Positions 5,801 through 63,958 of a stretch of DNA of 64,000 nucleotides are shown here, in pieces (positions within the stretch are counted from its first letter, which is position 1; every line of letters starts with the position of its first letter). The stretch covers positions 50,220,001-50,284,000 of the forward strand of contig CM060733.1 in the NCBI GenBank assembly GCA_030704615.1, given 5' to 3'. The notes beneath the pieces were generated by a model. The model saw only the letters and a program-made list of their open reading frames with translations. It was not told where the DNA came from and did no database searches. This stretch comes from Takakia lepidozioides. Lineage: Eukaryota > Plantae > Bryophyta. A program made the translations under genes and the position numbers.

Positions 5801-6455
5801 TGTCTGTGTGTGCGCGGGTGTGTGTGTGAGGCAAAAATAACAAACAATTCTTGTGAAAAGCAGTGAAATGGTACCATTTCCCTTGAATCGCTAGCTGTCT
5901 AGCCAAAATACATCTATTCACTTGTGCTGAGCAAAGCTCTCTTTACCCCTTTGCCAATGTCTTATATATCCAAAACAATGAAATTGATTCTAAGACTCCA
6001 GAAGAATTTACACAATCTCAAATCCAACGTTTGGATGATTTTCCCCCTGAGGCTATGCGTGACAGCTTCCCTTCGTAGGGACTATTCTCTGACATACCAT
6101 CCTGTGTCCCTGCACAACACAACCCTCCATCCTATCAGTCATCTACCATCATGAGCTGAAGTAAAATGCAATAGGGTAACCTAATTTCATGTTGACAAAC
6201 ATGACGATTGTTCCACCCAGCAAAGCTTTGGAGTTAGAATTCTAGGCTTATTATTACAAAGACTCTCAGGGTCAGCACACAGCAGAGGAAAGAAAAACAT
6301 GAAATAACTGCCAGATGTTGTTTAAGATACAATTCAAAAACTGGGTATATATGCAAACCACCATCAAATCTGCGAAAATCTTAGTCAAATAGAAAATGCA
6401 CACCAAAAAATTGTATACAGCACCTTCCATGATGTAAACAGCTACATCTCCCAGT

Positions 6456-12400: not shown

Positions 12401-15400
12401 ACTGTGTCTACTGCTATCCAGACAATGTGTTTATGCTGAATTGTCAACTTGCACAGGACCACAGTACCAAATGTCACCAGCAGAGGCAGACCAGAGTGGC
12501 TCCTCAGGGTGAGCCATCAGAAACTGACTTCAGATAGAGCTAAAACTCCATTCACAAAGACTGCTACCCACGTTACACCAGCCACCTGGAAAAACTCGTG
12601 TGGGAGCATATGAGAGATAGAGCTTTGCACCTGGTATTCAAGAGCTTGATGGGAGAGAAATTTTTGGTACTCAATGTCCTTCCTGCGTAGGCTGCATAGC
12701 TCTTGTGCAGATCTGACTTCAGCTTCACGCACCTTCTTCTGAGATTCTTTCACCTGCACTTCCAGGGAATCAATAATTTCTTTGGACTCCATTTCAATCT
12801 CTCTCTTCTGATTCTCCAGTCTCAGGAGATGTTCCTCATCCAGCCGCTTGATGTAATCCAACTCATTCTTCAGAACTTGGACAGCAGACTTTTTCTCCTC
12901 GCTCTCCTTCACCAACCTGTCCATCTCCTCTTGCTTTACCTTCTTCTCATCTTCCACTTGCTTCTTCTCCATCTTCAAATACCCAGAGATGTCCCACAGA
13001 ACCAGAACCATCCACTTCAATACGTGCATAACATTTCAGTGTCATGCTTGAATACTTGATCAGAATACTTGAATACTTTGGTACTAAATTAGTAGGCCAG
13101 GGACCATAGCCACAAGTACAGTATGGAGCTGGCCTGCACAAGATCTGACGTGAGGAGGGGATTTTACTTTCTGTCAGCGCTCAATACTAGGTCAATAGCC
13201 AGAGCGCCTGCCCGGATAAAGGCACCTTAAACCTCTTTGGAAGCCATCCTCCATGCAAATGGTGCAAGGCATACATATTTCATTCCACTTTCTGGCCATG
13301 GATTTTCTTCATGTACTCATGTACAGGAAAGTGAAGGATTGCACAAGTAACTCTGCACCTTTGGAATCATCTATACATATATATTGCTCTCTTGAAGAGA
13401 TAGAGAGAGCCATCAAATCAGAACACTCTCTTGAGCTTTCTGCGGACGTTATAAAGCACCATTTCATTTCTCTTAGTCTCTCAGTCGTTGTTATACTACC
13501 CTGCTCACATGAAAAAAAAATTGCAAATACAAACCACCCCATACAAAGGTGTCACTTTTTCAGTCTTTTAGTCAAATAATCCCGATCAAATTTATCAATG
13601 GAGCAGTCAATAGTCCAATTAGTCCCTGAGGGAAAGGTGTTGGGAGCAATTTTACTTCAAATCTGGGCTGGCTTGCTGATCCACATGAAGGCGGGAAACA
13701 ATCTTTGAGTTTTTCACTGGAACTTCTTGTAAAACTAGGTTCCTCCTTGGAATGTTGGGTCATCATGCCATTTGTCTGAAATCCCAGCCAAGTAAAAACA
13801 CAATGTAGAGACATGCAAAGAGAGCCCACCTTGATTTGCCGAAGCTTAGTAGTAAGCAACTGCCACCCCCACCCCGCACCGTGCCAATCAAACAATAGAA
13901 ACCCATCTCAGTGTACATGCTTGCTCCAATGTCTGGCCACTACGGGTCAATTATGTTCATCAGATCTCACCTATCCTTAAAAGTGAAATGCGTTCCTTTC
14001 GCAAATGGAATGCTCATATTGACAAAGATATGTACAGCAACACCCTGTCCTAGTGGAGGCAGGACTTTTCTACATTCAATCAAAACAGTTTGAAAGTCAA
14101 ACAGACGATGTATATGACCGTCATCAAGAATGAGTGTTCAAGCCATCTATGCGCCATAAAGATGGTGTGAACAAGGGTGCACTCTTCATACAGCAAGGAA
14201 GGCTATCGAGCGTTACAAGCAAACAGCTCCATATGGTCTGAGGCAACCTACGGTGGATTTAAGAGGCAGGCATGAACATTGCGTTTCCTACACCACATAA
14301 AGAAAATAGTCTTGGAAGGCAAAGGACATGTCAGCAGTAACATACCTTAACTTCCTCTCCTGAGCCAACTGCCAATGCCTCTAGCACCATGGACCTTGAG
14401 GAGAGTTTTTCTTCTCGCACTAATATGTCCGTCAAGGCACTTTTCATCTGCAAGTTCAACCCCACAGAAGTGCAGTTGGCACAGTTTACCCGACTATACC
14501 CACAGCAGTAGCATGCATCAGGACTGAACCTCTTCAAGAGATCAACAGAGAGCACTGTCTCGAGTAAATGAACCACTGCATAGTAATGCAAAAACCTATA
14601 CAAACACAAGCATCCCTTGAGTTTTGATTGACATGAAAAGATCACAGGTCGCCCCAAAGAAATACAAACAAAGAGGTCAAAATCACACCAGAACTGAAGA
14701 CAGCTGGAAAATGTAGCTTTATCACATACTTTTGTGACTTGTTTCCTTTGTGTGAGAAGGTGGCGCTCAAACTCCTCCATCACTTTGCGGAGCATGAACT
14801 CCACCAACTGCAACAACAAACTAGGCAACACTGCCTCAGCTTTTATTTTTTCTGATTCTTAAGTTGGAGGAAAAGGGTGTATGCCCCAAATGAGACGTTA
14901 AAACCCACTGATCTTGACCTGAATACGCATAGTGCATACCATAGGCAATACCTGATGACATATCCACAAAGTGAGCAGAATCCCCAAATGTACTTTTTGG
15001 AAGCTAATTAAATGTGAATCAATGATAGTATTCAGGCAGACAACCTTGGCTTCCAAGTCCTAACAAAAACCAGGTTTTGCAGACCATGTAACACAGTACA
15101 TTAAATGTTGACCTCACCATTGGTACTTCTTCTGCCGGCTTATCCCCAAGAATGGCACTAATAAGGCTCAACAGTGACTGGGAAGGAGCATTCTGCAACA
15201 AACATATCAATACAGTTGATGAGATGCCTATAATCAATTCCAAAGGTACTTGTCTTGTAAGGGATTCAGAAAAGCTTACTCCTGCCAAATGATTGGTAGA
15301 AGAAAGCTACACTATTCCAAAAGATACATCAAAACTGGATCAACAGATCAAGACTGGAATTGCCATACCTGCCCAAGAAGATATTTACATTCATTGCCAC

Positions 15401-18400
15401 AAATGACGTCTTCGGAAGCCGAAACCACAACACTGACAGCCAAAGTAGATATCCTGCTAAATTACAGGTCAGACTGAAAGAATGTACATACATCGATTAC
15501 CGTTGTGGATCCATAGGACTCTAAAGCAGTAGGCAGGTATTGCATACGCCTCGCCTTCACTTGCAGAATATCACGAAATTTGTGGCCAATGTGTTGAAGC
15601 CAGGTGGAAGTTGCAGCTGGAAATCAGAGGTGAAACACACTCAGGTCCAAGACTTATCTTCTAGCATGTAGCTGTTCGGTGAAAACGAACAGAGCATTGG
15701 GAGACTCATATACTCATAAATAGTATTGAAAATCTTCTCTATCAAGAAGTACAGTCCACTTCCTTTGACTAACATACATTTGTTTATATCCTTCCCCCAA
15801 CAACTCACAGTGCTCCGAAAGAAACTGTTGAATAACACAAAGAGTCACTAGAAGCCCACCCCAAAAGCCAATCTATGAAGGCATCTGCAATTATGAGACA
15901 GGCAAGGGATAGTAAAGCTAGGGGTTCCTAACCCCTAACGATTATCAAGACTTCTCGATAGCTAACTCAACAAGTAGGCTTATTGAGGCTATTGTGTCAA
16001 CCTTGGCAGATAGAGGTAGGAGCCCACAATAGCTGGGAGCTCAAAAGCATACCCAGCTAAAATATATGGTAAGACATCATATTAACATAAACAGTGGACG
16101 AGGAGAACAACTCCCAACTCAACTACCTGAAGTATTCCCATTTGACATAAGCTCGTCCACATCATAACCTCCATCCAAGCTCCCATTCTGACCAAACCGC
16201 TCACTGTTGGATGGCAAACTCCCCTCGACAGAAGCTCTACTGTCCTTTTCACAGCTCAACATATCATTGGACCAGGCAGGAGATGCCATGCCATCATCGT
16301 CAAGGCCATCCCCATCAGGAAGACCCCACTTTCTTCGAGCCTGGTTGCAATAGCTGGTGAGACTTTTAGATCGTGTTAGATATTTCCCAGGATTTGATGT
16401 ATGTCCAGTGGAACCATTGGGCGATTTGAGCCTCCAAAACCCGAGTCCCCCGCCCTGCTTCCATTCGTGGTAGGATTTAAGTCCCAATATGCAATCCACT
16501 AATTTTCCTGATGAACCTGGAGATAAACCGCCCTAATCACATTGAGCAAGACATACACGAAAGGCCAATTCTCAGTGCCCTGAAAAGAGTAAAACATAAC
16601 CCATTCCCGCCTCTTCAATCCCACCATGTGCTAATTGATAATTCTCCTTGAAGGTGGGGGGAAAGCAGAAAGGGGTAGTCAAAGCATGTGACACAAAGGC
16701 CCAACTATTAGACAACAACCAGAGTGCCTGGAAAACATATAATTGGTTTGCTCAAGCATGGATTGCTGTCCTAGGTAACACATCACTGCAACTCCTAAGA
16801 TCCTCAATTCCTGCCTCCTTGCATCAGGATGGCCAATTGCCTTTCTCAATCCCTACATATACTGAAAGTGATAAGCCAGCCTCATCATTGGTCATTTTCT
16901 ACCTGCTCCAGGTCAGAAACTTCAAACGAAGGCAGCCCCATGTCTTCAATTGCCACCAGAAAATTTCTGACATTCTCAAAATATTGATATGCTGATTGAG
17001 CCCCCTCAAGTTGACTTGAAAGTGCTGGATTCTCAACCACCTGCCCGTAAGGAGAAGCCACATGAAACACTTCAAATAGAGTCCACAGTAGAATTCTCAA
17101 ACTAGCAAAGCCTTCTCCATGTACATGAGAGGGGACTGGTAATGAAAACCTGCCTTGTCTACAAATACCACTTTGGTCCTGCATCAACACAATTATGCCA
17201 AAAAGTTGTGCACAGCCTCATACCCAACCTTTTGGTCTGATATGTTCTTTGTTGATTCTGTCGCATTGTGGAAGTGGTTGGGATGGTGTCCAGTGGCCAG
17301 AAAATTTTCTATATCATTCCCTCCCTTTCTCTCCACCTTCGTGCCACATTTATGATCGGCTTCTTCTTTTTTCATTGCAAATTGCTCTAAGAAACTTCTC
17401 TTTATTTACAGTTCTCTCTCCACTGTGCCAGACGAGCCATGGGCCTCCCAGGGGGATAATAAAATGTCTTCACATTCTCTCTCTCTCGTCCTATGGTCAT
17501 TTGAAATTCTTTCCTTACTTGTGGAACACACACAACCAGACACAACAAATTTGGTAACAATGTGAAGCTAAATGGGGGTAGCAGCAGAGATTGGCACGCA
17601 ACTGGCAGTAGGTGGCTGGTCCATGGCAGAATGAATCAACCTTTGAATTTTAAAGCTACTCCCAAGAAGAAATGCCATATGAACTTTCTACACCCCAGAT
17701 GATTGAAAATGAAGGATTGGAATCTGCACCTTTGGTACTGCTCCAGGTTGAACCTTGTTCACAACATTGCAGAGAACCAGTCCATTCCTTAAGCACAGCC
17801 TAAACTCCTCTTCAGAGGGCTCATTTGGGAGGGATAGGCATCCAACCATCTCTTGCAACCAGGATACTGCTAGAACCCTCCTACTTGCTGAAACCCCCAA
17901 TCATTCCAAGCCATTCTGCAGGTTATAAGAGTTTTTACAAGAATCCCAGGTTTTGTAATGAAAGCATCCAAGGCCCCAATTTCCACCTTATGGTCAATCA
18001 ACCAAGAAAGTCTGTAGCTAGAGTCCTGTACCTAACAGGCAGGGTTATGAAGTGGATGAATAAGCTGAGTCAACAGTAGACAAAATTAATTCAGAGGTTT
18101 AGCCATGTGCTTGTTACAGCTAGCAGGAATGTGGCCTGGTTGAGCATGATGAACGGTAACATCATCTGGGGAACAACAACGGAGCCAACAAAAATATGTA
18201 TCGTGGGATGCCTAACAAAAACAAACCTGCTTCTTCTGCCCTCCTGGAAGCCATGTGTGTGTCACTCAATCTGGCCCCTGCGTCTAAACTGCAATTCTTT
18301 ATTGGAGTTGGGAAATCTGCATCCCTGTCCTTCCTTACTCCATCTTTTGGATGGCTGTAAGACTGGCCTTTGAGCCTCTCATAGTCGAGTGCTGTCCTGT

Positions 18401-18488
18401 CTGGCAAATGAAAGGGGCTGTTCCCCTGATAGCCGGGGGGAAGACCGTTTGCTGAGCCCATAATTGCATTCCCGTACGTTTCGTGCAT
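6456..18488 (-). CDS. Kinesin-14 with N-terminal calponin-homology domain (KCH / KIN14 type), ~22 exons
   Basis: Exons with consistent phases: 18488-18227, 17887-17730, 17040-16903, 16532-16127, 15616-15501, 15192-15118, 14807-14730, 14447-14346, 13859-13830, 12972-12631, 12235-12154, 12012-11917, 11687-11505, 11113-11007, 10706-10528, 9932-9768, 9479-9226, 9054-8891, 8616-8434, 8037-7067, 6964-~6856, ~6667-6456 (last two uncertain). Domains: CH domain ([28 protein letters not shown]; [10 protein letters not shown]), coiled coil, neck [25 protein letters not shown]-loop [10 protein letters not shown], switch [10 protein letters not shown], switch [24 protein letters not shown]. Confidence 0.95.
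9933..10527 (-). other. U12-type (minor spliceosome) AT-AC intron in the kinesin motor domain
   Basis: 5' splice site ATATCCTTT, branch site CCTTGAC, 3' end TGTAC. Removal restores [13 protein letters not shown] in frame. Confidence 0.9.
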
Positions 18489-20159
18489 GGCTTCGCCACA
18501 AGGTTCTTCCGCAGGGTGTTCTGGTTGCTGTTTTCTTAGGACAATGTGGCACTATTTCGAAGTTCCAATTTCTGAATGGAGACTCGATGTTCGAATGGCA
18601 ATCCCAATAAATTTGTCAAGTCTGCTCAAATAGAAAAGCCAAAAAATCCGCGAAAGACATCGGTGTTGATGTATCATACACAAATTTCCACTTCATACAC
18701 ACTCCTTTCATTACATTCGCAGAGCTAACACAATACGTGATCTCTTCCGCTTAGAAGCTCCTCCATCGTGCCACTCTACACGTCCCCAGTCAAAAGCTTT
18801 CGTTCTATTATCCGTGTCATTCGTGTATGAAATGCCTTTAATGCGCAGACTCCAGTTGACGACCTTGCGGTGACGGTCCTTCGACCCTCCGCAACAGGCT
18901 TATTTGAATAAAATGACGCGAGCATCGCCAACGACATTCGCAAGAGCTGCATTGGCATTGAATTAGAAGTCTTCAGGACTCTTCCACTAACCGAAGAAGA
19001 TAGTGAAAAGCAATTGGAGACAGATCATCTCTAACCATGAATTGCGCACAATTAGTGATATAAACCCTACATTTTTAATCACTGTGGACTCTCGAATGCC
19101 GTCTATTTCCTCAGCCATGCTTTCTCACATTTCCTTGGGCGTCCCCCCACCATAGACTTTTTCGAATGCCGAAGGTAGATACTTAGATAGATAGACAACA
19201 ACAAAGCAACGAGTCACACACCGAACAGAGAACGTTCGTTCCTACATCACACTCGTCCAAATTTGCGCTGTACGCAAACCACAATGGTGGAATGATAATG
19301 AAAGGCCAGCCGTGCTACGGTGTCCTCAAAGAAAAAAATTGTTCCAGAAATAGGTTTATTATCCCCAAACAGAGGGGAAGACGGACGGACGGACCATAAG
19401 AAGAGCAAAAGCCAACAAATGGAGCGGAGTTGATGTGAATGCCAATACCTCTCTCTCCTTCACCACTCGACATAGGCACCGCGCTGCAGCACAAACCGCG
19501 CTCGATACACTCCACCACCTCAAGAGACTAGACTATACAGAGCAGATTGAAAAAGAACAGCCGAGATTACAGAGAAGCTTCACAAACGTAACCAAAGTCC
19601 GAGAAATCCTTAAACAGCCACGAAATTGAGCGGCGAATCCTACGAAACGATAATCAATCACAACAACTACCTACAACACACCACAGCACTAGAAATTTGG
19701 TGAGAAACATGCACAGTGCACACCGACAATCTTCCAACAACCAAGCCAAGATCCGATTGAGCAACAGTGAGGAGCATGCGCGCGGATAATGGCATGCCCC
19801 CCTCTCGAAACTCTCCCATGCCCATCGCGGCATGGCATTCGGCCGACTGATCTCGGGGTCACCCATCCGTTGGGCTGGGCCAACCAACCAGAAGGCTGCA
19901 GCCTATCTCACTAGTAAATGCGCGAGCAGACAATCAATACGAATTAATGCGACTAGTTAGCCGCCGTAGTTCTACTAGTAACTCGCCATAACACCGGCTG
20001 TAAAGCCGCCCGAAGTTTAAAACGGTCCGCTGAAACCGCCGCGCAGACAACGAGACGACCGCGCGGCCACAAATTCAAAATTGGCACCATGGCCATGTGC
20101 ATGGCCCGGCATGGCATGAAGAAAGTGCACTTTAACGTTCGGGGAGCCAATAATCAGCA

Positions 20160-34851: not shown

Positions 34852-35648
34852 TCACAAACCCTTTTTGGCAGCTTTAGGCTCAATTTTAGCGTGTTCACCC
34901 TGCAAAAACATACACCATAAACTAGATTTGTATAAATCTTTCGCAATGTCAGAAATAAGAATACAGCATGCAAATAAACAACTGACCTCTTGATAACGTA
35001 GCAGTACACAATGCCAAGCTATTGGATTGGGTCCACACTGAATGTTTTTGTACATAGATTTCAAGGTACCCTCTCCTTTAATCTAAAGGGGCCAAAAAGG
35101 AACCTTCAGGAGTCAAGCTGTCCATATGTACACATCTCAGACCAGCAGCCACTTGTCCCTTCCTTTATGTCATGGACTCATTTTCATCTCTGTCTCACCT
35201 TTCCTCCCCTCTAGAGTCTCCCTCCTCCTCTGACAGTTCCAACTTACTTCTTTGTTCCCCTTTCCAACCCTCTCGCTTCCGCCCCCTTCTCCCTCTCTCT
35301 CTTCATCCCTCCCTCTACTGCCCCTTTTCTCCCCCCCTCCTTGCTTGCAACCTGTCTGTCCTCCTTTCCCCCAGAAGGAACCCGCCTCTCCACCTTGGTG
35401 CGATAAGTGGTCCCATCAGGCTCAATGGTCCACCCTGCTTCAGCTGCAAGTTTTCGGAGGACATCATTGATATCAGCACGTGGGGGCAGGCTGTAACCCC
35501 CGTGCTTGCGAAGGCCTGCAAAAATCTTGGTGGTTATGGCCCGCCGCTGTCTTTCCCTCAATTTGGTCTTCTCCTTCTCACTCGTACTGAGCTTAGCCAT
35601 ACTTGAGCTCTCTGATCCCTCCCCCCCTCTAGGTCCCCGATCCTGCAT
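34852..35648 (-). CDS. BZR1/BES1-family transcription factor, non-canonical (type-B-like), apparently short
   Basis: BES1_N domain [70 protein letters not shown] at 35648 or 35600. Donor AAG|GT after 35394; probable exon 2 from 34899 ([13 protein letters not shown]). 3' end uncertain. Confidence 0.88.
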
Positions 35649-37964
35649 CCATCACCCTCCTCATATTTCTTACCACAGCAGAATAGAATGAGAAGATGGT
35701 AAAACCATGCCGGCATGCATGCGGACCTTCTTTAGCAGAGTTAGGATGTACACAAACTTACTAACACAGGACTGACCAAAGTTGCATCCGGCTTACACAA
35801 GTGAACCATAGCCTTTACACCCCATCCGCAGGCCTTGGAAAATCAGTATATGTACGTATCTTTCTGGTACGAGGTATAGATGCATATAGGAAAAAGTTGA
35901 GGTGGTCAGCATGTACCTTCAGAATCCTGGACAAAAATCTAGTGATATCACAAAGCAAGCTAGTCCAAATTTGACCAAACTACGAACATGTACCCCATGA
36001 ACACCCTAAAATCTCCTTACAATGACGATCATCATTTCCAAAAACTTGCATTACTAAAGCTCTGATTGGCGCTCTAAACCCAATTTCAGATTAAAAAGAA
36101 GCTACATCCTGTATTTGTTAATTTCTTGGGCACTTGCACCACAGAGAATCTCCCAGAGAATATCTGAAGTCAAAAACATAACAGTGTAATGTGTCTTGAG
36201 TGAGATTTGCACAGAAAATTCTGTCACCAGCACAACAAAGTAATTGCTCACCTATAAGGCAAACTATAATATCAACCCTTCAATAATTTAATATTCCACA
36301 AATTGTATACTTGCGGAAATGGTTCTTTCCTTTTAGAGAGAGATAGATGTTATCCATTGGGACAAGTGAGCTTCACAATCTGTAAGGGCAAACTGAGAAT
36401 CTGCACCCTGCAAGTCCTGTTCTGCACTGGTAGGTACCCATAAGACCTGTTCAATCAACACCGGGATATCTAGTGCATGCTCAACACTCAATGAAAATTT
36501 CTCGCTTAAATGGGAACACCCACTCTGTTTTGGGCCCAATTTAACCTCTCAAGATGCCCAATGCTTGCCTGCCATCAACATTATGAAGAGCAACTGAAAA
36601 TTTTCATTCAAGGAAGAGGTTGGAGGCAGACAAGAGAAGAGCTTACCTCTGGCAGAGGCTGGTTGCTCTCCGCAATCTTGGTGTCAGACATGGAGCAGAT
36701 CTGATTGACCCGTAAATCCCCTACCCTGGTCGCTGTGAGTTCGGAGATGCTCTGAAGTGATGTAACCAGTCGACTAAAAATCGCATCAAAGGCAACTTGA
36801 TTCATCGTGTTGGCATCCCATCCTTGCCCTCCACTGTCAACTAGATCGATCAGGAAGGCAATAGGCACCGATTTCCAGGATTCACCGGTCCTAAACTGGG
36901 CAATTATCTCACGTATTTCGACCTTAGCCAGCAATTCACACTGTCACTAGTTCCGTTCATTTCACTTCCATGGATTGGCATCCGGGAATATCCGCTAATG
37001 CTCCTCACCTTCGTCTTCTTCGTCAAGTTCACGCTTCACCTGCTTCCATCATTTCATCACCGATTAATGGACTTCCAATATACTCCGCAGATATCTGCCC
37101 CAAGAAACTCGCTGCCGGATTGCCAAACATCACATAAACCATCGCTGATACCAGATCCTAACCAAATTTGCTATGCTACTCCTGCACCAAGAAACTCTTT
37201 ACCTGGATTGCCAAGCCATTTCATCCCTGCCACTTCAGATTCCCGACTTCACCCCAAGAAACAAAGGGACATCCAATGATCTGCATTACGACGTTTCTAA
37301 CCAAAATTGCGCCACCATTCCATCGTCCCAGCACCAAGAAACTCTCAACCGACTTGTCAAACCACTCCACGATCCCGATAACAAGGGGTACCGCAAGATT
37401 GCTCCCCGAGACCGCCACTCTACTCCACCATCCGCATCAGAATCTGACCCAATAATTCACAGAAATCGCGCAACACAAACTGCCGGATGGCATCGCCCAG
37501 CTGTGGAATCCATGTCTTCCTGTGGATCCAGTTCTGGGGGAGCGTGCCTCGGAATCGGGGGTCTATCTATCTAGTGCGCTCCACCTTCTGGTCACCCTGC
37601 TCCCTTCTACGGTTGTTTTGTGTGGCCCGCCTGAGTTCGACTCTCTCTACCGCCCACGCAAAAAATCCCAAACCCTGAACCTGCGAAAAAGACACTTTCG
37701 AGATGCCTGCTCGGATGCCCCCACCGGAGTTCGACTCTAGATCCACAACCCAACTCGGGAGATGAGCTCGACAGTGTAGATTTGATGTTGCAATAAAGCG
37801 ATCGAATGTCATCCACGCTGCGAGGAGCATGATCAGCGTGATTAAGGGTGACCTAATACCTAGCTGCACATATCGATTCTTTTACTGCACTAGCTCGGAT
37901 ATCCCCTGAATTCTCACAGTTTCACAACTCGTGCTGAGAAGTAGAGGCAATCCAGCGATGCCCA

Positions 37965-42741: not shown

Positions 42742-45700
42742 ATGGTAGAATGGTGGAGAAAGGGAAAGGAAATGCATGATTTTCTCAGGAAGCGCGAGTT
42801 AAGCAACGACTGTGGGTAAGCTCATAGATCAGTCCGATCTGATGGAGGGGAAGCGAGACTAGTGCTTGACGAATTGCTTCGAAATATTCCTAATTCGGCA
42901 CGATATGTGCTAGATTTGACATTTTGCATGCCGATATTACTGGAGAGAGTAAGCAACAGCCTTACATTTCTTGCAGGTCCGAGAAAAAAATTTGCGAGGA
43001 CTATTCTGCTTCCCGGATTCCATCACTGCTTCAAGAGAGAGAGTTGCCAGGCACAGATGCATATGACAAGGTGTTCGCAGCGGCCTGGCTGGACCACGAA
43101 AAGTTTGTCGTTGGGACTAAGGATAACAAACTGGTACTTTGGAATGCTGCAAATAATAGGAGGATTGATATTTCGTTGCCGCGTCGAGCACAAGCACAAC
43201 CACAGCAGAGTGAGACCTGCGGCATACACTCCATGTACTCTGTCTCACCTTATCCTATTGTGTTCTGTGGTGTTTTCAGGCTTCCCTCCGTTTATCTGCC
43301 AATGAAAATAGTTGAGCTCGCAGCTTCAACTTCTTCATGTCTGCTAAATGGCACTTTGCCAGGAGGCCTTCCGTAGAGTTTGAGCAACCTTGCCTCCTCA
43401 TCTGACAAGAGGTCACGCGATTTTTCCCTGTAGCCATCTTGCGTTCTTAAAGGCATGTTGGAAAGCAGCTTGGCTGTTCCTGCATATCTTAGTTAACCAA
43501 TGCACTGTATTTGCTCGTAGCAGTCTTGATAGATGGCCATTATGACTTCACAGCATCATCTGATGCAATCATGTGTGCTCCATTGTGAGGGTTCGGTATT
43601 TAGATTGGTTGGAGTTCAGGGAGCTAATGGTTTTTTACTGAAGTGGTCACCATAAAACTGTCTGAGCTGCACCAAAGAAGCCATCTTAAACTACTGTTTT
43701 GTGTTGTATTGGCTCTCCTGTTAGAAAGTGTAGTAAACTTTTCCAAGAATCTCCTTGCCACTGGAGCAGACAACCCAGACGATGTTGCAGTGTTCGAACT
43801 CCCATCCTTCAATCCAGTTTGCCTTTTGTCGGTAAGATCCAAGATACCACAATGACTCTAGAACGATATGACGAACATCTAGCCAATGTTTATGGTTATA
43901 TGAGTATGACTAATGTGGGTTCTGGAGTGGCCTGCTTTTAATCTCTCTATTTTAGGGTTTTCCACCAGCAATGAGGAATGTACCACTTTCAACATACATC
44001 TCATTTACACAGCTCATTGGCATTCATGGAAAATGATATTAGAGTGTCCTTGATCTCCTCAAGATTGTGTTGCAATTTTCTTGCAGATGCAGCTTCCAAC
44101 TCCCACCTTTGAATGGGACACAGCTTGAGAAGCTTTGATAGCCTGTTTGAGGAATTGGTCTGGGACTCTCTAGTATTGTATTTTTGACCTGACAACAGCT
44201 TTTTCTTGGAAAATACAGAAGCACAGTGATTGGATGTTTGCAGCAGCATGGCTGACAGATGTATTGCTTGTAACAGGTTTGGCACCGGACTTTCCCATTT
44301 GGAATTTTGAAGTCAAGTCTTTGCCATAGTTAGTTTAGCACTTGGTGGTATTGTGTTAATATGCTGGGATTGCTTGGCTGACAGATGTATTGCTTGTAAC
44401 AGGTTTGGCACCGAACTTTCCCCATTTGGAATATTAAAGTGAAGTCTGCCATAGTTAGTTTAGCTCTTGGTGGCATTGTGTTAATCTGCTGGGATTGCTT
44501 ACGTTACTTTGAACTCTTGGCAGGCTCTCGTGATACCACAGTGAAGCTATGGTCTGTAGATGTCAACAGTCCATTCACTAACCAGTGCCCAGTCATTGAT
44601 CGATCAGTTCACGCAGACAAAGTGAGAGATCTCAAGTATTGCCCAATTTCTGAGGTATAATATCTCAATTGAGCTGCACGTTCTTTCGATATCCTTGTTC
44701 TAGCCGCTTCCTCTTTTTCTAGAAACTCCTCTCTTGTAGGGTGCATTATGTGTCCAACCCAATATGTGGAGCTTCTCACCTTCAGCACAATTCATGAATT
44801 CTACTGTGTGCAGCGGCTTGCAACCCTGGGACAAGATGCCTTGTGCAATATCTGGGATCCCCAACTCATGGAGGTGGTGAGTGCCCCTTTTGGCTTGTGG
44901 TTTATAGGCAGTCTGGCAGTGTTACCTTTTCAATAGAAGAGGGCACTTTCCAGTAACCTGTGTTTTGTGACTCTTGACCCACAAGTAAGCTTGTACCAAG
45001 TTCTGATAGGAACCTTAGCCAATTCATGTCTAATCCTTTGCTGGGATTGTGGATTATTACAGGTCTCGGGTGTGTCACTTCACCACAAAAGAGAGCTGGT
45101 CTGTCTTGCAATGGAGCATCCTCTTATTGCAATTGGATCTCAGAAGTTCATTTCCTTGGTAGACCTACGCTGTGGACATATCATTCAAGATGTTGAATCA
45201 GCAGATGAAGGGTGGGGTATGCAGCTTCTTCCTCCCTATCTTTTTTCTCTTCTTCAACAAGTGATGCATTCTGTTGACCATTTAAGGGGTGGACTTGCTT
45301 GATTCCGTTTTTTGATATCAGGTGTGCGATCATTGAGTTTCAAAGGCAATAATGTCCTTACATGCGGCGGTGGCAAAGGGAGGTTGTCATTTTTTGACCT
45401 GCGGGCTGAAAAGTATATCTCACTTTGTGAGTACCTTCTCACCTGTCTCACCTCTGCAACAGGAATTTGCCTCCTTTCACTAGTCTCTGGGAAAAATCAG
45501 GAGCATTTGCGTAGCATTGAGGTTGTATTGCATGTAACTGCATTGATTTTGAGGTTCTCTTGTGCAGACCCTGAAAAGGGTGGGTGCACCCATTCTTGTG
45601 GCAGTGCGTTGGAGCTCTCTTATTATAATACAGGCAAAGGCGCTTTGGTGATTCTCTTTTCCAAATGTCACTTGTTTAAAGTCCCTTGTAGTCATTGGGT

Positions 45701-46105
45701 ATCACTCAAGTGAAAATCAGTCAAAAGCGTATATTGGAGCAGCACTCACTATTGAGATGGGTCCTAAAATTGAGTGAGAGAGAAAAATGTTCAAGAAAGA
45801 AAAAGAAAGATTTGTACCAAAGGGCCCAAGGGACTTAAGTGGAACAACGCATAACCACGGAACCCAATGAACAGTCGAACTTGATTTGGCCTCCTGTAGC
45901 ATGTGGACCTGTTCTACAAAAAATGAAAGATTGGTTTCCAACTTTGGTGCAGGAGTCCAATGATTTGTACCTCAATCACTTCCAACGGGACCAGATTCAG
46001 CATGCGGTATATGCTCATGCATATGATGTGAGTGGCACCAAGCTCCTTGCAGCAGGAGGCCCGCTTCCATATGGTTTAAAAGGTTGCTATGTTGCGCTAT
46101 GGTAG
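42742..46105 (+). CDS. DCAF12: DDB1- and CUL4-associated factor 12-like WD40 protein
   Basis: Exons 42742(or 42772)-42815, 42977-43234, 43729-43831, 44219-44276, 44524-44654, 44814-44876, 45063-45216, 45322-45426, 45568-45647, 45953-46105. Motifs DKVFAAAWL..VVGTKDNKL, CGIHSI..NFSKNLLATGADNP, HSDWMFAAAW..TGSRD, KVRDL, ELVCLA, GVRSLSF, TGKG and C-terminal AVYAHAYDVSGTKLLAAGGPLPYGLKGCYVALW match animal DCAF12 as recalled. Confidence 0.9.
44249..44499 (+). repeat. 126-bp tandem duplication spanning an exon 3' end and splice donor
   Basis: TGGCTGACAGATGTATTGCTTGTAACAG|GTTTGGCACCG...GGGATTGCT occurs at 44249 and again at 44375. Confidence 0.9.
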
Positions 46106-48549: not shown

Positions 48550-49025
48550 AGGCATCGTAGACACAATCATTCTCCGATAGAAACCTCCTCAAGTGGCGGT
48601 GTCAAGCATCCCATGTGCCACCCCCTTGAGCATTTGTCACACACCAACATGGTTGCGGCGCCACCAGCATGCCCACATAGCATGCAACGCAACCTTGCAG
48701 GTACCACTGCAAGGTTAGGATCTATCATCCCATCCACATGTGGAAGGTGACATGGCGCACAATTGCGCACATGGTCCTTCCATACCATGTCATCTCGACC
48801 CTCCAGAATCAACACTCCTGAAGGCAACACCTCCCTGACCCTTAGAATCACACGTCTTGCGGTGACATCCAAGGTCGTAGGTGCTGTCTGCTGCAGATTC
48901 ACATAGTCCCCAGGATGGAAACGCCGAACACTTGGCCGATATCCCCTTTCACATATAGTGGCGTACCTCAATGTATCTCAGTGTTGGGCAATAACAAGGT
49001 TCTCAAAAGCCATAGGCATGACTTC
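48550..49025 (-). pseudogene. Ty3/Gypsy integrase C-terminus fused to a PHD finger
   Basis: MPMAFENLVIAQH*DTLRYA..RRFHPGDYV.L (post-integrase region), then a Cys4-His-Cys3 PHD: CMLC..MLVCDKCSRGWHMGCLTPPLEEVSIGE*LCLRC. Lies upstream of the PPT and LTR. Confidence 0.85.
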
Positions 49026-54950: not shown

Positions 54951-57915
54951 AGCCCGGTAAGACTCTATTGGCTTCAAGAGGTGGTGGCAAGTACATAACC
55001 ATGCTAAAAAACATAAGCAGACATTGATGAATCCATAAAAAATGTTACAATGTTTGAGCGACAGCAATACAAAGGCAGCAGGGCTAGGGGAAAATGTCAA
55101 ATCTTTCTGAAATCATCAGTACAGCCGACTGCCAGTGTTGGTATGAGAGTCCAAGCTGATCCAGGTATCAGAACCTCAGCCGTGCTCTTGATTTAGTGTC
55201 CCTAGCTCTTTTATGCCTCCAATTGAATTCAGCCTCATCTCCCTCACCAGGAGACTTCCCATTGAGTGGGGATGGCGTCTTTCTAGGTAAAGCGCATGTC
55301 GGGAAGGCTGGAGCCAAGCAGGTCGCCTTTGTAGCTTGCGTCCTTGTTGTTCTGAAGTTCTGGGAATAGCTGCACACACAGAGTCCCACGCTTTCCTCCC
55401 CTCAGTTAACAAATCATGATATGTATGAAACAAGATCGATCTGCCTCTGGGGTGTTTGCCCTCATAAACCCAGGCACACCTTGTTTTCCACAAATTCCAT
55501 AAGGTATGAGCTCTCAGAGAAGCCCAAACCGGGCAGCTAACCTGAGATTGAGCAATCTGAACATTAAGGAGCAGCATTGAAGGAGGGGGTGGATTGGAGA
55601 AAGAGGCCCAGTGAGAATAGAATCCAACAATTATTCTCTATATCCTACTTGAGATATTGCAAACAGTGTTCAATAAACTCTGGTTCAAGCAAGCAGAGGG
55701 GGCAGGTAGGCTGGTCCTCATGGGTAACAAGCCTGATGGGGAGTATTCTGTGTGCCAGTTTCCATAGGAAGTCGGATACTTTTGTAGAACGGTCCTTCCT
55801 CCAAATGTCTCTCTACACTTTGTCCCAGCAGCCTTGAGGTAAAATGTGGTTGCCCCATTTGGCTGTCCATTTTCTTTGAAAAGAGCGAGGTGGGTTGATG
55901 AGAGAGTAACCCAACTTCACAGAATAACCAAAGAAAGGGGTTTTTTTGCTATCCATCCACCGCCACTCTCCTGGATCGAATTGCAAATCAGCCAAAGGGC
56001 AAGAGAGGAACCAGGATATGATTCGTGAAAGGCCCATTGCACTTCCAATCCTGGGGGAGGCAAGGGTTTGGCATTGCCTTTACTGTCCAACACTCTTATG
56101 TGGCAGAGGTTGTCCTTGTTGTGGTCTGTAATGCCTTGAAAAGCCAGACAGTCTTCGGCATCTGGTATGAAGCCTATCCCTGTTGCTGTGTTTCCATGCG
56201 TGGAGAGAACGAGGATTACCGTCCATTGATTGTCCGTTGGTGCAGCCATCCAAGCGGGGACTGACCAGTCTGTTTGTGGTTCATCAAGGATGGGCATCAT
56301 GTATTGTGGGATATTTGATAGGACAATGTTCCAAGCTCTAGACCTTCTTCCACCCAGGGATGTAGAGACTTGCTCCTCCGTCAAGAACTGGTCTTGCTCT
56401 CTAATAGAGGCGATGTGGGTGAAGCCTTTCCCTTCCAAAAAAGCCCAGGCCGGGGCATGTTTCAGGAGAGGGGTAGAGTCCATGTTGAAGTTGATGAACA
56501 GCGGCTGGCGGAGGCATTCTTGTATAGTGGCAGGCATTCTCTGTGTGAGGTTGCCCCTCAGGGCATGCCATGCTTTCCAAATTGTTTGCCATGGTCTGGA
56601 AGCCAGCTTAATTCCTGCATTTCTACCTTGGACAATCCACCTGAGAGAATGAGCCTAGAGGGGAGAAGATGCGGGGATAGATCCCATCAAATAAGGCTGA
56701 ATGAGTTTGCTCCAGGGAGCACTCCTGTATTTTATTGCCCTCGGTATCGACTTTGCCAGTAGTGCTTTGATCTGAGCTGCAATGTCCAAAATTCCCAAGC
56801 CTCCCCGCTTTTTCTCTTGGCACAGCTGGTCCCATGAGACTAGTGCCCGTCTCAATGGCGTAGAGGGGGTGGCCCCCCAGATGAAATTTCTAATGAGGGT
56901 TCTTATCGCCTTATGAAGGGCAGCCTCCAGATCCCATACTGCAACCAAAAACCATAGCGAGCCTTCCATAACTTGATTGGCTACTAGTGCTCTGCCCACT
57001 ATAGAAAGCATTGCCGAGCTCCAAAAAGCCAGGCTTCTCTTAAGTCTGGAAAACACCTCTTTCATTCGGTTGTGCTGCGTAAGATGTATGCCCATCTGGT
57101 GACCTAGCAAGGTGTGTGACTCCCCCGGTTGCAGCCATCTTAAACCAAGGTCTTGGCCCCATGATTGACAATGTGTTGTGGGAGCCCCATCTTGCCGGAG
57201 GGAGAGGATTCCCATGGACTTTCCCCAATTCACTTTCAGGCCTGATCCAATGCATAAAGTATGGAGGGCATGTAGCGCTCTGTCTATGTTGTTTTTCCTT
57301 GTATTGTCTAGCAGGAGCACCGTGTCGTCTGCATACATAGATAATTTCAGCATTTCGGGCCTGTAGGTGGGCAATTGAAGACCAATGATGTCGTGTGTAG
57401 AGTCCAGTAGATGACCCAGTGAATCCGCCGCAATCAAGAAAAGGAACGGGGTGAGTACTGGATAACCTTGTCGTACTGATCTGGATATTGGGAAGGATCT
57501 GGAGATTACCCCATTTTAAACCATTACCATGCTGGAGGCCGAATGGAGTAGTATCCGAACCCATGCCAGGAAAGGACCCCCTAGCCCTGTTTTTTCCAAA
57601 ACCTTCATGAGAAAAGGCCAGTCAATGGAGTTGAAAGCCTTCTCAAAATCCAGGATAAGGAACACCAATGGCTGGTTATTCACCTCAGCCTGTGGAGGCT
57701 CTCATGGGCTAGAAGGATGTTATCAAGAATCATGCGATCCTTGAGGAAGCCTGTTTGATTTTTCCTTATGATGTTCGGCAACAACGGTTGCAGCTTGAGT
57801 GCCAAGGCCTTTGCAATGATTTTATAGGTAGAGTTTAGCAACGTGATTGGCCGATAGTTTGCCATATTGTCTCTTTCCCCCTTTTTGAAATCAATGTTAC
57901 CAGTCCCTCCGAGAT
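54950..57915 (-). mobile_element. 5'-truncated L1/Tx1-type LINE ORF2 remnant (reverse transcriptase, zf-RVT)
   Basis: NYRPITLLNSTYKIIAKAL, QTGFLKDRMILDNI, LDFEKAF, RQGYP, SMYADDTVL, GLKVNWGKS, GGLGILDI, C-terminal RAHTLWNLWKTRC. Several frameshifts. Confidence 0.93.
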
Positions 57916-58605: not shown

Positions 58606-61600
58606 CTATGTAATTTCTATATTGTAAATTTTTGGCAATGGATTGAAAACAAAATACCGGGCTTTATCCCAAAATATTAGGGGGACAACTATTGAGGAAA
58701 ATCCAATAGCTACACCTATAGCAAATCCATGTATAGACACAATGTCGGATAATTGAGGTTCTTGGTGTTGTAAGGTTCTATATATCTCTATCGAAGCATT
58801 TAAATTTTGTGTGCATGAATTGTTTAGAGGTGAGCCACAAAGACCTAAATTCCCTGGCTTATAGGTACTTACAGTAAAAGAATTGAATTGATTGCCTCTC
58901 GGAATTAGCCCGGATAGATTGTTCATAGATAGTTCTAATGTACCTAAGTTTTCTAGTTTTGTAAGAGTTGTTGGAATTCCACCTGAAAGTTGATTGTTTG
59001 AAAGATCTAATGTTTCCAATTCTAATAGATTTTCAAAATTTGGCGGTATCTCACCTTGTAAAGCATTGTGAGACAAAATCAAGTACTTCAAAGCCACCAA
59101 CGTACCGATATGCAAAGGGATACTTCCAGTGAGACTGTTTCTTGATAAATCAATATATGCCAATGACTTCAAAATGTATGTATAGTCCAAGCCAATCCCT
59201 CTAGGATATAAAGTGATTTCATAATCAAGTGTCGAACCCGCGGCTAGTGAGTCATTTGAATTTTCTGTCACTTTGAAACCTTGTAATCGAGTAAGGTTGG
59301 TAGGAATATCGCCTGAAAAGTTGTTGTTTGACAAGTCAAGTACTTGAAGTTGTACCATGTTGCCAATCCAAGATGGAATAGAACCCTCAAATTTGTTTCC
59401 AGCTAAACGGAGTATGCGCAAGTTTTGCAAACTCGAATCATTGACTAGCTCAATAGGTAAGCTTCCATTTAGGTTATTCATACCGAAATCCCCCAGTTTA
59501 AGACTAGTAGAAGTGGCGAAAGATGATGGAATACCTCCAATGAGATTATTACTATAAACTGAAAATAATTGTAGATCATCGAGTTGATTAAAATCAAGTT
59601 GTAATGGTCCAGATAGCGTGTTGTTGCTCAACTCCAATATTTGCAAAAACGTACAATTGACCAAAGTCGAAGGAATGCTTCCACTCAACTTGTTTGAGCT
59701 TAAATACAGATATCGTAGTTGCGTCAAACCTCCCAATTGTGTAGGTACATCACCTTTGAACATTATTCAACACCAATTTAATAATAATAATAATAATAAC
59801 CATCACAGTAAGCAATGTGGATTAGCTATACCACTAAGGGTGTTAAGTGAATATTTTTACGAGGTTGGAATCATATTTCTTGTAAGTCGTTCATTTCTCA
59901 TTCATAGCCTTAATTTTCTCTATCATAATGACATATTTGTTCACAATCTACAAAAATTTACCAAATGTATTTGCGATTTTGAACTTTAAATTAATTTATC
60001 ATTTCTGCGCTTTTGAGTTTTCAAATAACACCATACCTTGTAATTGATTGTTGTCAAGATGAAAATATCTCATGGATGTGCAATTGGTCAAAGACGTAGG
60101 GATTTTGCCAATAAGTCTATTTTGGCTCAAATCCAGATACACCAATTGATTCATCCTTCCCATTTCAGTAGGTATGTGACCTAAACATCAAACCACACAT
60201 AATTAGATAATTTCTCATAATCAATCTCTTGTACTATAATCATGTATCCAAGTTCATTTAAAAACAACCAAACAAAATTTGTTTCACATGTCAAATGGAC
60301 AATTTAATAACATCAAAATAATTCTTGTATGTATTGACATTCTTGGTGCTGAAAAACATCATATTCAAATGTTCAACATAACCAATTCAATAAGCCTTGT
60401 GTTCTCTACGCATAATTAACATCTTAATTTTACAAGTGTTGATGGGGTTTATAGAGATATTTTCATATTGTCTTCACACAATGAAATAAGTCTAGATTTT
60501 AAAATTGTTACATTTCTAATTAACGTGTTAATTGTGATAAATGTTATTCATGCATCAAATTTCCCCACCTGACAAATTGTTGTTGTTGAGCCACAAACCC
60601 TGCAAAGAAGTGCAATTTGTCAACGAAGAAGGGATAATGTTGGTAAAATTATTTCCACTCACGTCCAAATATACCAATTTATTCAGCACTCCCAACTCCA
60701 TGGGTATATGACCTGAACATCAACCATTGCATGTTAGTACCTATAGTGTATATTACATGTTCATTACACTATACATTCAAAAATTTAGGTAACAGATTCT
60801 GAATATTCATTGACATTTCATAATATAAAAAGTTGAATGCAATATTGAATACATTATCATCAACCTTTCACATTTAGCTCTAAAAAGACTAGTAGATCAA
60901 TCATAATCCATTGATACTAATATATCTATTATTTGGGTGTTCTCATATACAATTAGATATACTTGAGACAAAAGTTTTGATGCTCTCTATTTCGTTATAA
61001 GTACCATATTAAAATTAACCCGATATTTTATTTTATCTTTTGTGAAAGGAAACCTGGGAGCGACAGCCCACAATTCAGGCCCTTGAGGAGGGGGAAAACA
61101 TAATTATACTAGTGATAAATATGGAGTTTTTACCTGTCAATTGCATGCCGTTAAGCCACAATTCTGTGAGTAGGGTGCAGTTCAACAGAAAAAGAGGGAA
61201 TTGACCCGTGAATTGATTACCACCTAGATTTAAGGAAGAGAGTTGATTCGACATTCCCAATTCCATAGGTATATCACCTGCCAAAAAAAGCATCATGGTA
61301 GAACTTGAAAGAGTGTTTTTCGAGAAAAAGGAGAAAAAGAAGAGTTTTTTTTTTTTTTTTTTTTTTTTTTGGCATAAGACTTTATAACTGAGGTCGGATT
61401 TATGATAAAATAATTATTATTTTTTAATTAAAATTACTACCATAGGTGCCTCTTGCTGTCCGCCATTAATTAAATAAAATAAAAATACAGAGCTGGAGAA
61501 AAAAAAAATTCCTCCTCTCAAAGTGCCAAATATCCATATATTTGAACCCAACACTTGTTTGAAAAGTGTTCAACCTCTTCTGCGAAAAAACAAAACAAAA

Positions 61601-63958
61601 CAAAAACAAAAATGATATGGTGTTTGTTTTTTAGATAATATGAATAAAAAATAATATCAATCTATTAAATATATATTTTGTCTTCAAAGTCAATTAATAT
61701 TTTACCTGTCAGTTGATTGTCGCTGACCCAAAAGTATACAAGGTTTCTCGATCCGATAGGTATATGACCTATACCACCATTAACCATTGTATGTCAGTAC
61801 TATTGCACAATGTTTCTGTTAATTATAGTTACATTAGTTAAAAATAAAATCATATATATATATATATGATTTTTTATTTTTTTTGAAATACAATGTTATG
61901 TACTCACCTGTAAAACTAATTAAGCCCAAGTTTAGCCTAGTAAATGATAGCTAAATCCAAATAAAGAGCCCAAGTTAAAATAATGATCTAAGTGATAGGA
62001 CGTTAAGGGTTGAGGTAGCAATTTTTTTCCTCTTCAAAGATGTTATTTAAAATACACTTAAGTTTCAGTAAGAATTGAAGATATGAGGAGTAGATGGTCA
62101 AGAGCTAACTAAAGAACTACATAGTTAAATGTAGCTAAAGACAATCGAATGATATTCTCAGATCTAAGGATGGATTGACAGTAGTCCTACAACATGATTT
62201 TGTTACATTGTTACACCAGAGCAAAATTTGCAACCATGCAAGAACCTACCTGTGAGGTTGTTGTTGTTAAGCCATACACCCAAAAGAGACGTGCAATTCG
62301 TGAAAGAAGGCGGTATATTGCCCGTGAGATTGTTTCGGCTCAAGTCCATATAGGTTAAATTTTGCAGTTGACCAATTTCTTTGGGTATATACCCTGATAG
62401 TTGGTTGTTGTGCAGCCACAGACCCACAAGGGAAGTACAACTCGCCAATGAAGATGGGATGTTGTCTATGAGATTGTTAAAACTCATATTCAAATATTTC
62501 AATTTCTTCATTGTTCCCAATACATCAGGTATACCACCTGATCAGCAACAACCATCACATATTAGAATTGCGCTCCATATATATTCATCATAATGCACAT
62601 TCAAAAATTGAGTTCAATACAGATTGCAACATGACTACACCGGGAGAAGGTTACATGTGAGGGGGAGGAGATAATCTCACCCATAAGTTTGTTTGAGGAA
62701 AGATAAATGGTACTTAGATTTTGCAGTTGTCCAATTTCTTTGGGTATAGACCCTGATAGTTGGTTGTTGTTTAGCCACACACCCACAAGAGACGTGCAAT
62801 TCGTGAAAGAAGGCGGTATATTGCCCGTGAGATTGTTTCGACTCAAGTCTATATAGGATAAATTTTGCAGCTGACCAATTTCTTTGGGTATATACCCTGA
62901 TAGTTGGTTGTTGTTCAGCCACAGACCCACAAGGGAAGTACAACTCGCCAATGAAGATGGGATGTTGTCTATGAGATTGTTAAAACTCATATCCAAATAT
63001 TTCAATTTCTTCATTGTTCCCAATACATCAGGTATACCACCTGATCAGCAGCAACCATCACATATTAGAATTGCGCTCCATATTCATCAATGCACATTCA
63101 AAAATTGAGTTCAATACAGATTGTAACATGACGACACCGGGAGAAGGTTATATGTAAGGGGGAGGAGATAGTCTCACCCGTAAGTTTGTTTGAAGAAAGA
63201 TAAATGGTACTTAGATTTTGCAGCTGTCCAATTTCTTTGGGTATAGACCCTGATAGTTGGTTGTTGTTTAGCCACACACCCACAAGGGAACTACAATTCG
63301 CCAACGAAGATGGGATGTTGTCTGTGAGATTGTTCCTACTCAAATCCAAAAGCTCCAATGTCTTCATTGTTCCCAATGCAGTTGGTATACCACCTGAACA
63401 ACAACCATCACATATTGTTAGAATTGCACATGTAATTTTAATGTACATTAAAAGATTGAGTAATATAGATTTCAACCCAAGTGTTTATGCCTGAGAGAGA
63501 ATCCATGACCTAAATGCACATGGGAGCCTACCTGTGAATTGGTTGTTGTTTAGCCACACACCCACAAGGGAACTACAATTCGCCAACGAAGATGGGATGT
63601 TGTATGTGAGATTGTTCCTACTCAAATCCAAAAGCTCCAATGTCTTCATTGTTCCCAATGCAGTAGGTATACCACCTGATCAACAACAGCCATCACATAT
63701 TGTTAGAATTGCACATGTAATTTTAATGTACATTAAAAGATTGAGTCATATAGATTTCAACCCAAGTGTTTATGCCTTAGAGAGAATCCATGACCTAAAT
63801 GCACGTGAGCCCACCTGTGAATTGGTTGCTGTTAAGCCTCAATACCACAAGGGATGTGCAATTCGCTAAAGAAGAGGGTATAGTGCCCGTGAGAGTGTTC
63901 TCACTCAGATCGATATGCGAGAGCTTGGTCAACTTTCCCAAATTTGGCGGTATGCCAC
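58606..63958 (-). CDS. LRR receptor-like protein (Cf-9/RLP type: island domain + 4 LRRs, TM, short tail); 5' part extends beyond the window
   Basis: Open phase-1 exons 63958-63815, 63675-63532, 63393-63178, 63040-62681, 62537-62250, 61768-61706, 61277-61134, 60712-60569, 60180-60037 and terminal exon 59753-58606. Plant LxxLxLxxNxLxGxIP repeats, island (YEITLYPRGIGLDY), NQFNSF..GNLGLCGSPL, TM GFAIGVAIGF, no kinase domain. Confidence 0.93.
62250..63830 (-). repeat. Recent tandem duplications of LRR exon + intron units
   Basis: Intron 63394-63531 is nearly identical to 63676-63814, and intron 62538-62680 to 63041-63177. Exon segments are shared almost base for base. Confidence 0.92.

Follow-up and report, generated by a model that had tools for sequence, protein, structure and literature searches.

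A predicted receptor gene of Takakia lepidozioides has probably gained LRR units by intragenic unequal crossing-over within its coding repeats, in the style of Cf-2, with the introns as passengers. The gene was analysed in a window of 64,000 nucleotides (assembly GCA_030704615.1, contig CM060733.1, positions 50,220,001 to 50,284,000), and all coordinates are those of the window. The breakpoints of both of its youngest duplications lie within coding LRR units and were confined to windows of 3 nt and 7 nt. An ancestral single intron at the Gly codon would have been multiplied along with a two-LRR unit, and such copying of one intron would explain why all introns agree in phase and position.

Predicted from sequence and holding no transcript joints, the exon model places the gene on the minus strand, with GT..AG splice sites in all nine introns. 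Exons E1 to E9 and the last exon (Table 1) give an open reading frame of 931 aa, in which 33 LRR repeats are visible and whose 5′ end is beyond the window. All junctions of E1 to E9 are phase 1-1, splitting the LRR Gly codon between its first and second bases. With the exception of E6 (63 nt), the lengths of these exons are multiples of 72 nt (8/9), none is a single 72-nt exon, and all nine are frame-neutral. The nine exon lengths of the original prediction, the symmetry of the exons at the LRR Gly codon with all but one a multiple of 72 nt, and a constant exon with island, four LRRs and transmembrane helix 3′ of the cassettes were all recovered, the last as an exon of 1148 nt. This last exon lies outside the interval 60037..63958 that had been given for the ectodomain. 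A loose cassette detector recovered 9/9 exons from the window and fired in none of 200 base shuffles. Two read sets were guessed to be RNA; one gave a few short low-depth contigs of the last exon, and neither gave an intron-crossing joint, a result that speaks neither for nor against expression.

Table 1. Predicted exons, introns and young tandem duplications of the receptor gene, in window coordinates.
Feature	Position	Strand	Description
E1	63815..63958	-	144 nt, two LRRs; first visible exon, gene extends past window
E2	63532..63675	-	144 nt, two LRRs; second unit hybrid, 5′ part resembling E3 unit 2, last bases resembling E1 unit 2
E3	63178..63393	-	216 nt, three LRRs
E4	62681..63040	-	360 nt, five LRRs; fourth unit hybrid, switch at 62789-62787
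E5	62250..62537	-	288 nt, four LRRs
E6	61706..61768	-	63 nt, one shortened LRR of 21 residues; least certain exon
E7	61134..61277	-	144 nt, two LRRs
E8	60569..60712	-	144 nt, two LRRs
E9	60037..60180	-	144 nt, two LRRs
Last exon	58606..59753	-	1148 nt; six LRRs, then the island, four further LRRs and the cysteine cap, then the GxxxGxxxG transmembrane helix and a short tail up to the stop
Intron I1	63676..63814	-	139 nt, 96% identical to I2
Intron I2	63394..63531	-	138 nt
Intron I3	63041..63177	-	137 nt, 96% identical to I4
Intron I4	62538..62680	-	143 nt; last ~80 nt common with I2, first 55 nt not
Young tandem duplication	62249..63346	.	period about 503 nt, 92.7% identity, 601 aligned nt
Young tandem duplication	63249..63911	.	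period about 282 nt, 90.3% identity, 383 aligned nt

The periods of the two young tandem duplications, 503 and 282 nt, are sums of exon and intron lengths. In unit 4 of E4, 12 informative sites read as in E5 unit 4 and are followed by 7 that read as in E3 unit 2, with no switch back (P 4e-5 for the perfect split), and in unit 2 of E2, 16 sites as in E3 unit 2 are followed by 3 as in E1 unit 2 (P 0.002); both P values are optimistic because the parents were picked by eye. The proposal that the 216-, 288- and 360-nt exons are mosaics of LRR units produced via unequal crossover within exons was borne out, E3 to E5 being mosaic with exact switch points. Neutral divergence between the young copies is about 4%, so that duplication described beforehand as active is better called recent.

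Near-identity of the flanking introns, also claimed at the outset, applies to two pairs among the nine introns, I1/I2 (131/136 aligned bases identical) and I3/I4 (131/137), and not to I5 to I9, in which at most the 3′ ends are common. For the 5′ parts of I2 and I4 the alignment score was equalled by 245 of 500 shuffles, and for the 3′ ends of I2, I4, I5, I7 and I8 the alignments exceeded the shuffles (0-1 of 500). Over the 38 nt 5′ of the acceptor, mean similarity was 20.5 among eight RLP introns, 14.2 among 15 acceptors picked from the adjoining kinesin gene and 12.4 across the two sets, and the similarity of the RLP introns was matched by 1 of 5000 label permutations. Judged by these alignments, the five tested intron 3′ ends are of older common ancestry. 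Since I2 and I4 end alike and begin unlike, one or more of the older events may have had an intronic breakpoint, as true exon-cassette duplication does, which speaks against the crossing-over reading. A reading of the 137-143-nt introns as decayed 144-nt LRR units was rejected, as 16-59 of 60 shuffles equalled the score for I1 to I4, and the search of the introns for LRR-exon likeness gave no convincing match.

The product is likely to be a cell-surface receptor-like protein with ID+4LRR features. It matched LRR_1, LRR_4 and LRR_8 of Pfam, its repeats are of the plant-type extracellular class of 24 residues, and a single unbroken match was found to PDB 7drb chain C, residues 13-310. The island is followed by four LRRs and then the cysteine cap, and QxxT/S after the last LRR is present as QFNS. 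The juxtamembrane stretch has a net charge of -2 (three acidic residues, one Arg), the helix carries GxxxGxxxG, and the stop at 58606 follows about 20 residues past the helix, leaving a short tail; no kinase family was found among the scanned ORFs. The island holds neither Kx5Y nor Yx8KG and reads Rx5Y, with Arg replacing Lys; these motifs occur in more than 75% of members and are common but not universal (PMC10834447). Island, four LRRs, QxxS, cysteine cap, acidic juxtamembrane stretch, GxxxGxxxG and lack of a kinase are as in the ID+4LRR RLPs RXEG1, RLP23 and the Cf type, from which the gene differs in that nine or more introns interrupt its LRR region, that Arg replaces Lys in Kx5Y and that the tree places it apart from the angiosperm groups (PMC10834447). 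By analogy with the family, the variable LRRs would act with the island as sensor of an extracellular ligand, and signalling would run via SERK and SOBIR1-type co-receptors. Rfam gave no match within the window.

Cf-type genes of angiosperms are mostly intron-poor, and some RLP groups are intron-rich. The former had served as the yardstick in the original prediction; given the placement in the tree, bryophyte RLPs are the proper comparison. In a tree of 49 proteins the predicted protein grouped with Ceratodon RLPs (99/93), inside a group with Riccia (98/97). The Ceratodon purpureus proteins KC19_9G032200, M758_1G022900 and KC19_9G053600 have 43-45% identity over the last exon and fall in the same clade, with alternating two-LRR units whose number varies; compared as proteins, theirs is a separate expansion with repeat units of different sequence. 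The sequences of the relatives P0129, P0170 and P0250 suggest intron positions in common with this gene. All three start with a few non-LRR residues right before an LRR Gly, and P0250 does so at the repeat with which the last exon of the present gene also starts.

In the gene described here the introns belong to the repeated unit, whereas the LRR regions of the tomato Hcr2 genes are not known to hold introns. Cf-2 is reported to have evolved through intragenic recombination of repeated LRR sequence, and Cf-2/Cf-5 (Hcr2) share with the present gene near-identical tandem LRR sequence from such recombination and the pairing of a variable region with a conserved base (PMC7468133). Repeat change of this type, intragenic recombination in LRR coding sequence, was found here through the hybrid units and is a likeness of mechanism; descent within the Solanaceae Hcr2 family was not indicated, the protein grouping with bryophyte proteins in a tree built without Hcr2 sequences. 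Plant LRR receptor genes with numerous introns also occur in intron-rich LRR-RLK subfamilies such as XIII-2 (26 introns), and moss genes often have extra introns, but the structures of those subfamilies are conserved from moss to flowering plants, whereas here the structure is being remodelled and no kinase is present (PMC5296948). A metagenome scan gave 78 loci with 28-50% identity, read as seed-plant and bacterial LRR genes and not as moss members. A strict cassette detector that finds 8/9 of the window exons found one cassette in 1/78 of these loci, and a looser one fired in 20/78, apparently within long ORFs; 24/78 had one ORF of at least 600 aa with at least 12 LRR matches and a cap.

It is possible, if doubtful, that the cassettes are used at the RNA level, skipping giving receptors with varied LRR combinations on one signalling base. 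All nine exons are frame-neutral, but in-register duplication alone gives such symmetry, which would be its by-product and would also render any exon skip frame-safe. Nine frame-neutral exons make up to 512 in-frame subsets. For KC19_9G032200 of Ceratodon, a member of the clade, the annotation gives products of 902 aa and 854 aa that differ by exactly one 48-residue two-LRR block with ends placeable at Gly, which hints that the fully spliced form is perhaps not the sole product. Since AG|GT is a frequent reading at LRR Gly junctions, this annotated 144-nt difference could however stem from an exitron or from wrongly mapped reads. Precedents are the brown-algal ROCO genes (PMC11378527) and human NLRP genes, which likewise have two alternating LRRs per frame-neutral exon and of which NLRP3 skips two-LRR exons (PMC6642158). 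The NLRP genes differ in LRR class, in exons of 171 nt, in a stable layout and in skipping demonstrated by RNA, and the skipped NLRP3 form is inactive and no new specificity (PMC6642158). Slightly less likely again is a two-level diversifier in a bryophyte clade of surface immune receptors, in which crossing-over would mint two-LRR cassettes and skipping would recombine them in RNA on the fixed island, four-LRR and transmembrane base, so that one gene would yield many ectodomains, as a land-plant counterpart of brown-algal ROCO. Under unequal crossing-over in coding repeats, and from family knowledge, full splicing would give the main product, with diversity arising between haplotypes through repeat gain and loss.

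Classical exon shuffling, in which recombination in introns moves whole exons, between loci as well, the way it does in the ROCO genes of Ectocarpus, is improbable as the driver that it had been proposed to be. The ROCO accounts describe type I LRR exons with the identical boundary, at the Gly of GxxP...NxLx in a 24-residue LRR, and recent intragenic rearrangement (PMC3341825, PMC11378527); in addition, I2 and I4 look like intronic chimaeras, and the 3′ ends of introns are related. Both youngest breakpoints are nevertheless exonic, and no inverted or dead LRR exon was found in the introns on the plus strand within the window. Filtered read-derived contigs gave no paralogue with E1 to E9 at ≥88% identity and no extra depth: mean contig depth of the duplicated block was 56 and 67, near that of the flank (44-62), which leaves little room for outside copies at that identity. 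According to those accounts, ROCO has one LRR per 72-nt exon (0/9 exons here), encodes a cytoplasmic GTPase and not a surface receptor, and has inverted or dead exons and exchange between loci, together with diversifying selection and demonstrated alternative splicing; no sign of these was seen here in the window, the filtered contigs or the young duplicates.

Decay of the gene, with the repeats as neutral copy noise in a pseudogene, is very improbable. It would fit the shortened E6, a LINE fragment directly downstream, a 5′ end beyond the window and the presence of a frameshifted paralogue fragment, but the 931-aa frame is open and the splice sites are intact. Since the duplication, 511 nt of coding sequence have gained 5 synonymous changes (pS 0.041) and 6 replacement changes (pN 0.015), and 273 nt of intron have gained 11 changes (Fisher p 0.03), with no coding and four intronic indel events (p 0.015). 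Replacement changes are thus fewer, pN/pS in the exons being about 0.36, and on these small counts the exons are under purifying selection since the duplication. Diversifying selection was not found either, the young duplicates having no significant excess of replacements at exposed xxLxLxx positions (3/6, p 0.12).

That the duplications are assembly artefacts, the outcome that would have overturned the original prediction, is extremely improbable, because contigs built from reads include each of the two copies of the largest duplication, with roughly twofold depth. A contig of one run matches the E4 copy (62787-63123) with 0 differences at depth 79.6 and a contig of another the E5 copy (62284-62626) with 0 differences at depth 103.4, where unique contigs have 43-62 and contig depth is not equal to copy number; the copies are ~4% apart with indels, and 90-92% of sampled words are present in the read data. 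Both contigs stop at the inferred switch, among the listed contigs none crosses the duplicated block, and the supporting runs are a single sample, possibly the window's own source.

The gene offers a clean, readable case of introns in a plant receptor being multiplied as the repeats duplicate, and its breakpoints are placed to within a few bases. It also draws attention to a bryophyte RLP clade, so far uncharacterised, in which LRR number is changing fast, a usual sign of recognition genes. RNA-level diversification of surface receptors in mosses was not found described in the main texts of the open-access literature searched. If skipping were true, mosses would diversify surface receptors in RNA, and the natural LRR cassettes would be ready modules to test how RLP specificity is built.

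Exons were located by scanning the minus strand for an AG/G acceptor followed by an LRR start and then an in-phase GT donor. The scan returned nine LRR exons (E1 to E9, each followed by an intron, I1 to I9) with the lengths of the original prediction. All nine predicted introns have GT..AG ends and, as had also been proposed, cut an LRR Gly codon after its first base. The usual exon unit comprises two LRRs, and exons of 72 nt are absent. Together with the last exon, E1 to E9 give an open predicted frame of 931 aa with 33 repeats; the 5′ end of the gene lies outside the window, E1 starting only 42 nt from its upstream end. A loose detector of cassettes (frame-preserving LRR exons flanked by phase-1 introns) recovered nine of nine exons in the window and zero in 200 of 200 shuffles.

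Features of the receptor gene and its neighbors (window coordinates)
Feature	Coordinates	Strand	Remarks
LRR exons E1-E9	63958-60037	minus	144, 144, 216, 360, 288, 63, 144, 144, 144 nt
Last (tenth) exon	59753-58606	minus	six LRRs, island, four LRRs, cysteine cap, GxxxGxxxG helix, short tail
E4 copy in contig	62787-63123		
E5 copy in contig	62284-62626		
In-frame AG/GG sites within E3-E5	63249, 62896, 62752, 62393		
Element in I7	61038-61098		~55-60 nt
Region covered by paralogue contig	59071-59435		
LRR in last exon	59054-58983		begins AG/GTGAG, ends TTTCAG/G; possible in-frame 72-nt exitron
Broken LINE-type reverse transcriptase	55917-57621	minus	~1 kb downstream of receptor gene
PHD-finger protein exons	48567-48977		
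DCAF12-like beta-propeller exons	42894-45713		
BES1/BZR1 factor exons	35244-35651		
Kinesin-14 gene, multi-exon	~6021-18542	minus	related to Sphagnum calponin-homology kinesins
Kinesin-14 intron	10527-9933		AT-AC ends

The nearest named relatives of the last exon are Ceratodon purpureus proteins (43-45% identity). In a tree of 49 proteins picked from two protein searches, with none removed, the receptor clusters with Ceratodon and unnamed relatives (support 99/93), separate from angiosperm LRR receptor-like proteins (RLPs) and PSKR-like proteins; this cluster is nested in a group with Riccia (98/97), although two long branches weaken the outer group. Judged by the hallmarks of RLPs with an island and four LRRs (ID+4LRR) in the accessible text of PMC10834447, those visible in the window are present except Kx5Y, where Arg replaces Lys. 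The predicted protein gave a single continuous match to PDB 7drb chain C (residues 13-310). Six Ceratodon relatives (P0132-P0135, P0137, P0139) are annotated from the same internal Met within the repeat array and some carry odd residues at Gly junctions, which suggests that these gene models are broken by the repeats. A read-derived contig of single-copy depth contains a ~90% identical paralogue fragment, in which 20 nt stand in place of 135 nt across the island and another 1 nt is lost; it is probably a frameshifted copy.

An assembly artefact, raised beforehand as an objection to the duplications, is unlikely, since both copies of the ~503-nt tandem duplication occur letter for letter in read-derived contigs at raised depth. 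In four runs of one sample, possibly the window's own source reads, 90-92% of sampled words were present. The E4 copy was found in a contig of one run and the E5 copy in a contig of another, each with 0 differences, at depths of 80 and 103 versus 43-62 for unique contigs, contig depth not being equal to copy number. Both contigs terminate at the inferred crossover and no listed contig crosses the whole duplicated block, whose mean depth (56 and 67) is close to that of the flanks.

The proposal of unequal crossover inside exons was borne out by hybrid units with sharp switch points. Unit 4 of E4 is E5-like at 12 informative sites and then E3-like at 7, switching inside three bases, and unit 2 of E2 is E3-like at 16 sites and then E1-like at 3, switching inside seven. 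Because the switch points lie within units and each duplication period (503 and 282 nt) is the summed length of an exon and an intron, both youngest duplications broke in coding LRR units and carried the intron along. The reading frame is preserved through the 72-nt repeat register, not through intron symmetry. Near-identity of the flanking introns holds for I1/I2 and I3/I4 (96%) and fails for the remaining ones. The 3′ ends of eight RLP introns are more alike (20.5) than 15 hand-picked kinesin acceptors (14.2; 1/5000 permutations), and the final 80-85 nt of I2, I4, I5, I7 and I8 align better than shuffles. A single ancestral intron would have been multiplied together with a two-LRR unit, which would explain the uniform intron phase. 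Between I2 and I4, the 3′ part is shared and the 5′ part is not; an older break may therefore sit inside an intron, counter to a purely exonic account. The element in I7 is a very high-copy repeat (summed contig depth tens to hundreds of thousands versus ~50 nearby) and probably a small transposon end; it occurs once in the window, and an Rfam match was not found.

The 511 duplicated coding nt contain five synonymous and six replacement changes (pS 0.041, pN 0.015), and the duplicated introns 11 changes in 273 nt; indel events number four in these introns versus zero in coding sequence. Compared with neutral changes, replacements are under-represented (p 0.03), and this deficit, with the lack of coding indels, supports a working gene. 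The suggested check on exposed positions gave no evidence of diversifying selection (three of six replacements, p 0.12, little power).

From exon lengths and phases, each of E1 to E9 could be skipped without frame loss. KC19_9G032200, a C. purpureus relative in the receptor's clade, has two annotated products, of 902 and 854 aa; at the protein level, the longer one has an extra 48-residue block of two LRRs in the receptor's register, which may be taken as one positive lead for exon skipping. AG/GT is common at LRR Gly junctions, so this length difference could stem from an exitron or from wrongly mapped reads. Combinatorial splicing of the receptor's own LRR exons appears rather unlikely.

Elsewhere in the window, a search with a kinesin exon gave matches to 8 of 382 candidates, seven of them named Sphagnum (up to 66% identity). 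Taken with the Ceratodon relatives of the last exon, these matches point to a bryophyte, likely a moss, as the source of the DNA. The donor and branch signals of the AT-AC intron in the kinesin gene are U12-type.

Cf-2 evolved as its repeated LRR sequence recombined within the gene (PMC7468133). The receptor works in the same way but has introns within the repeated unit. Ectocarpus ROCO genes, for which alternative splicing is described (PMC11378527), have the exon boundary in common with the receptor (PMC3341825), which lacks their single-LRR and inverted exons. NLRP3 has frame-neutral two-LRR exons with known skipping (PMC6642158); intron-rich LRR-RLKs also occur in plants, with conserved structures, and moss genes frequently have additional introns (PMC5296948). 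The accessible portions of PMC9292849, PMC12512272, PMC12602163 and PMC12118082 held nothing further on RLP exon layout, and no description of LRR exon cassettes in bryophyte RLPs was found in the open-access literature searched. When a strict detector was applied to 78 loci, mostly outside the receptor's clade, a single locus gave a hit, of one cassette. The gene is quite likely a bryophyte ID+4LRR receptor-like gene that grows via intragenic unequal crossing-over, by which introns are multiplied.
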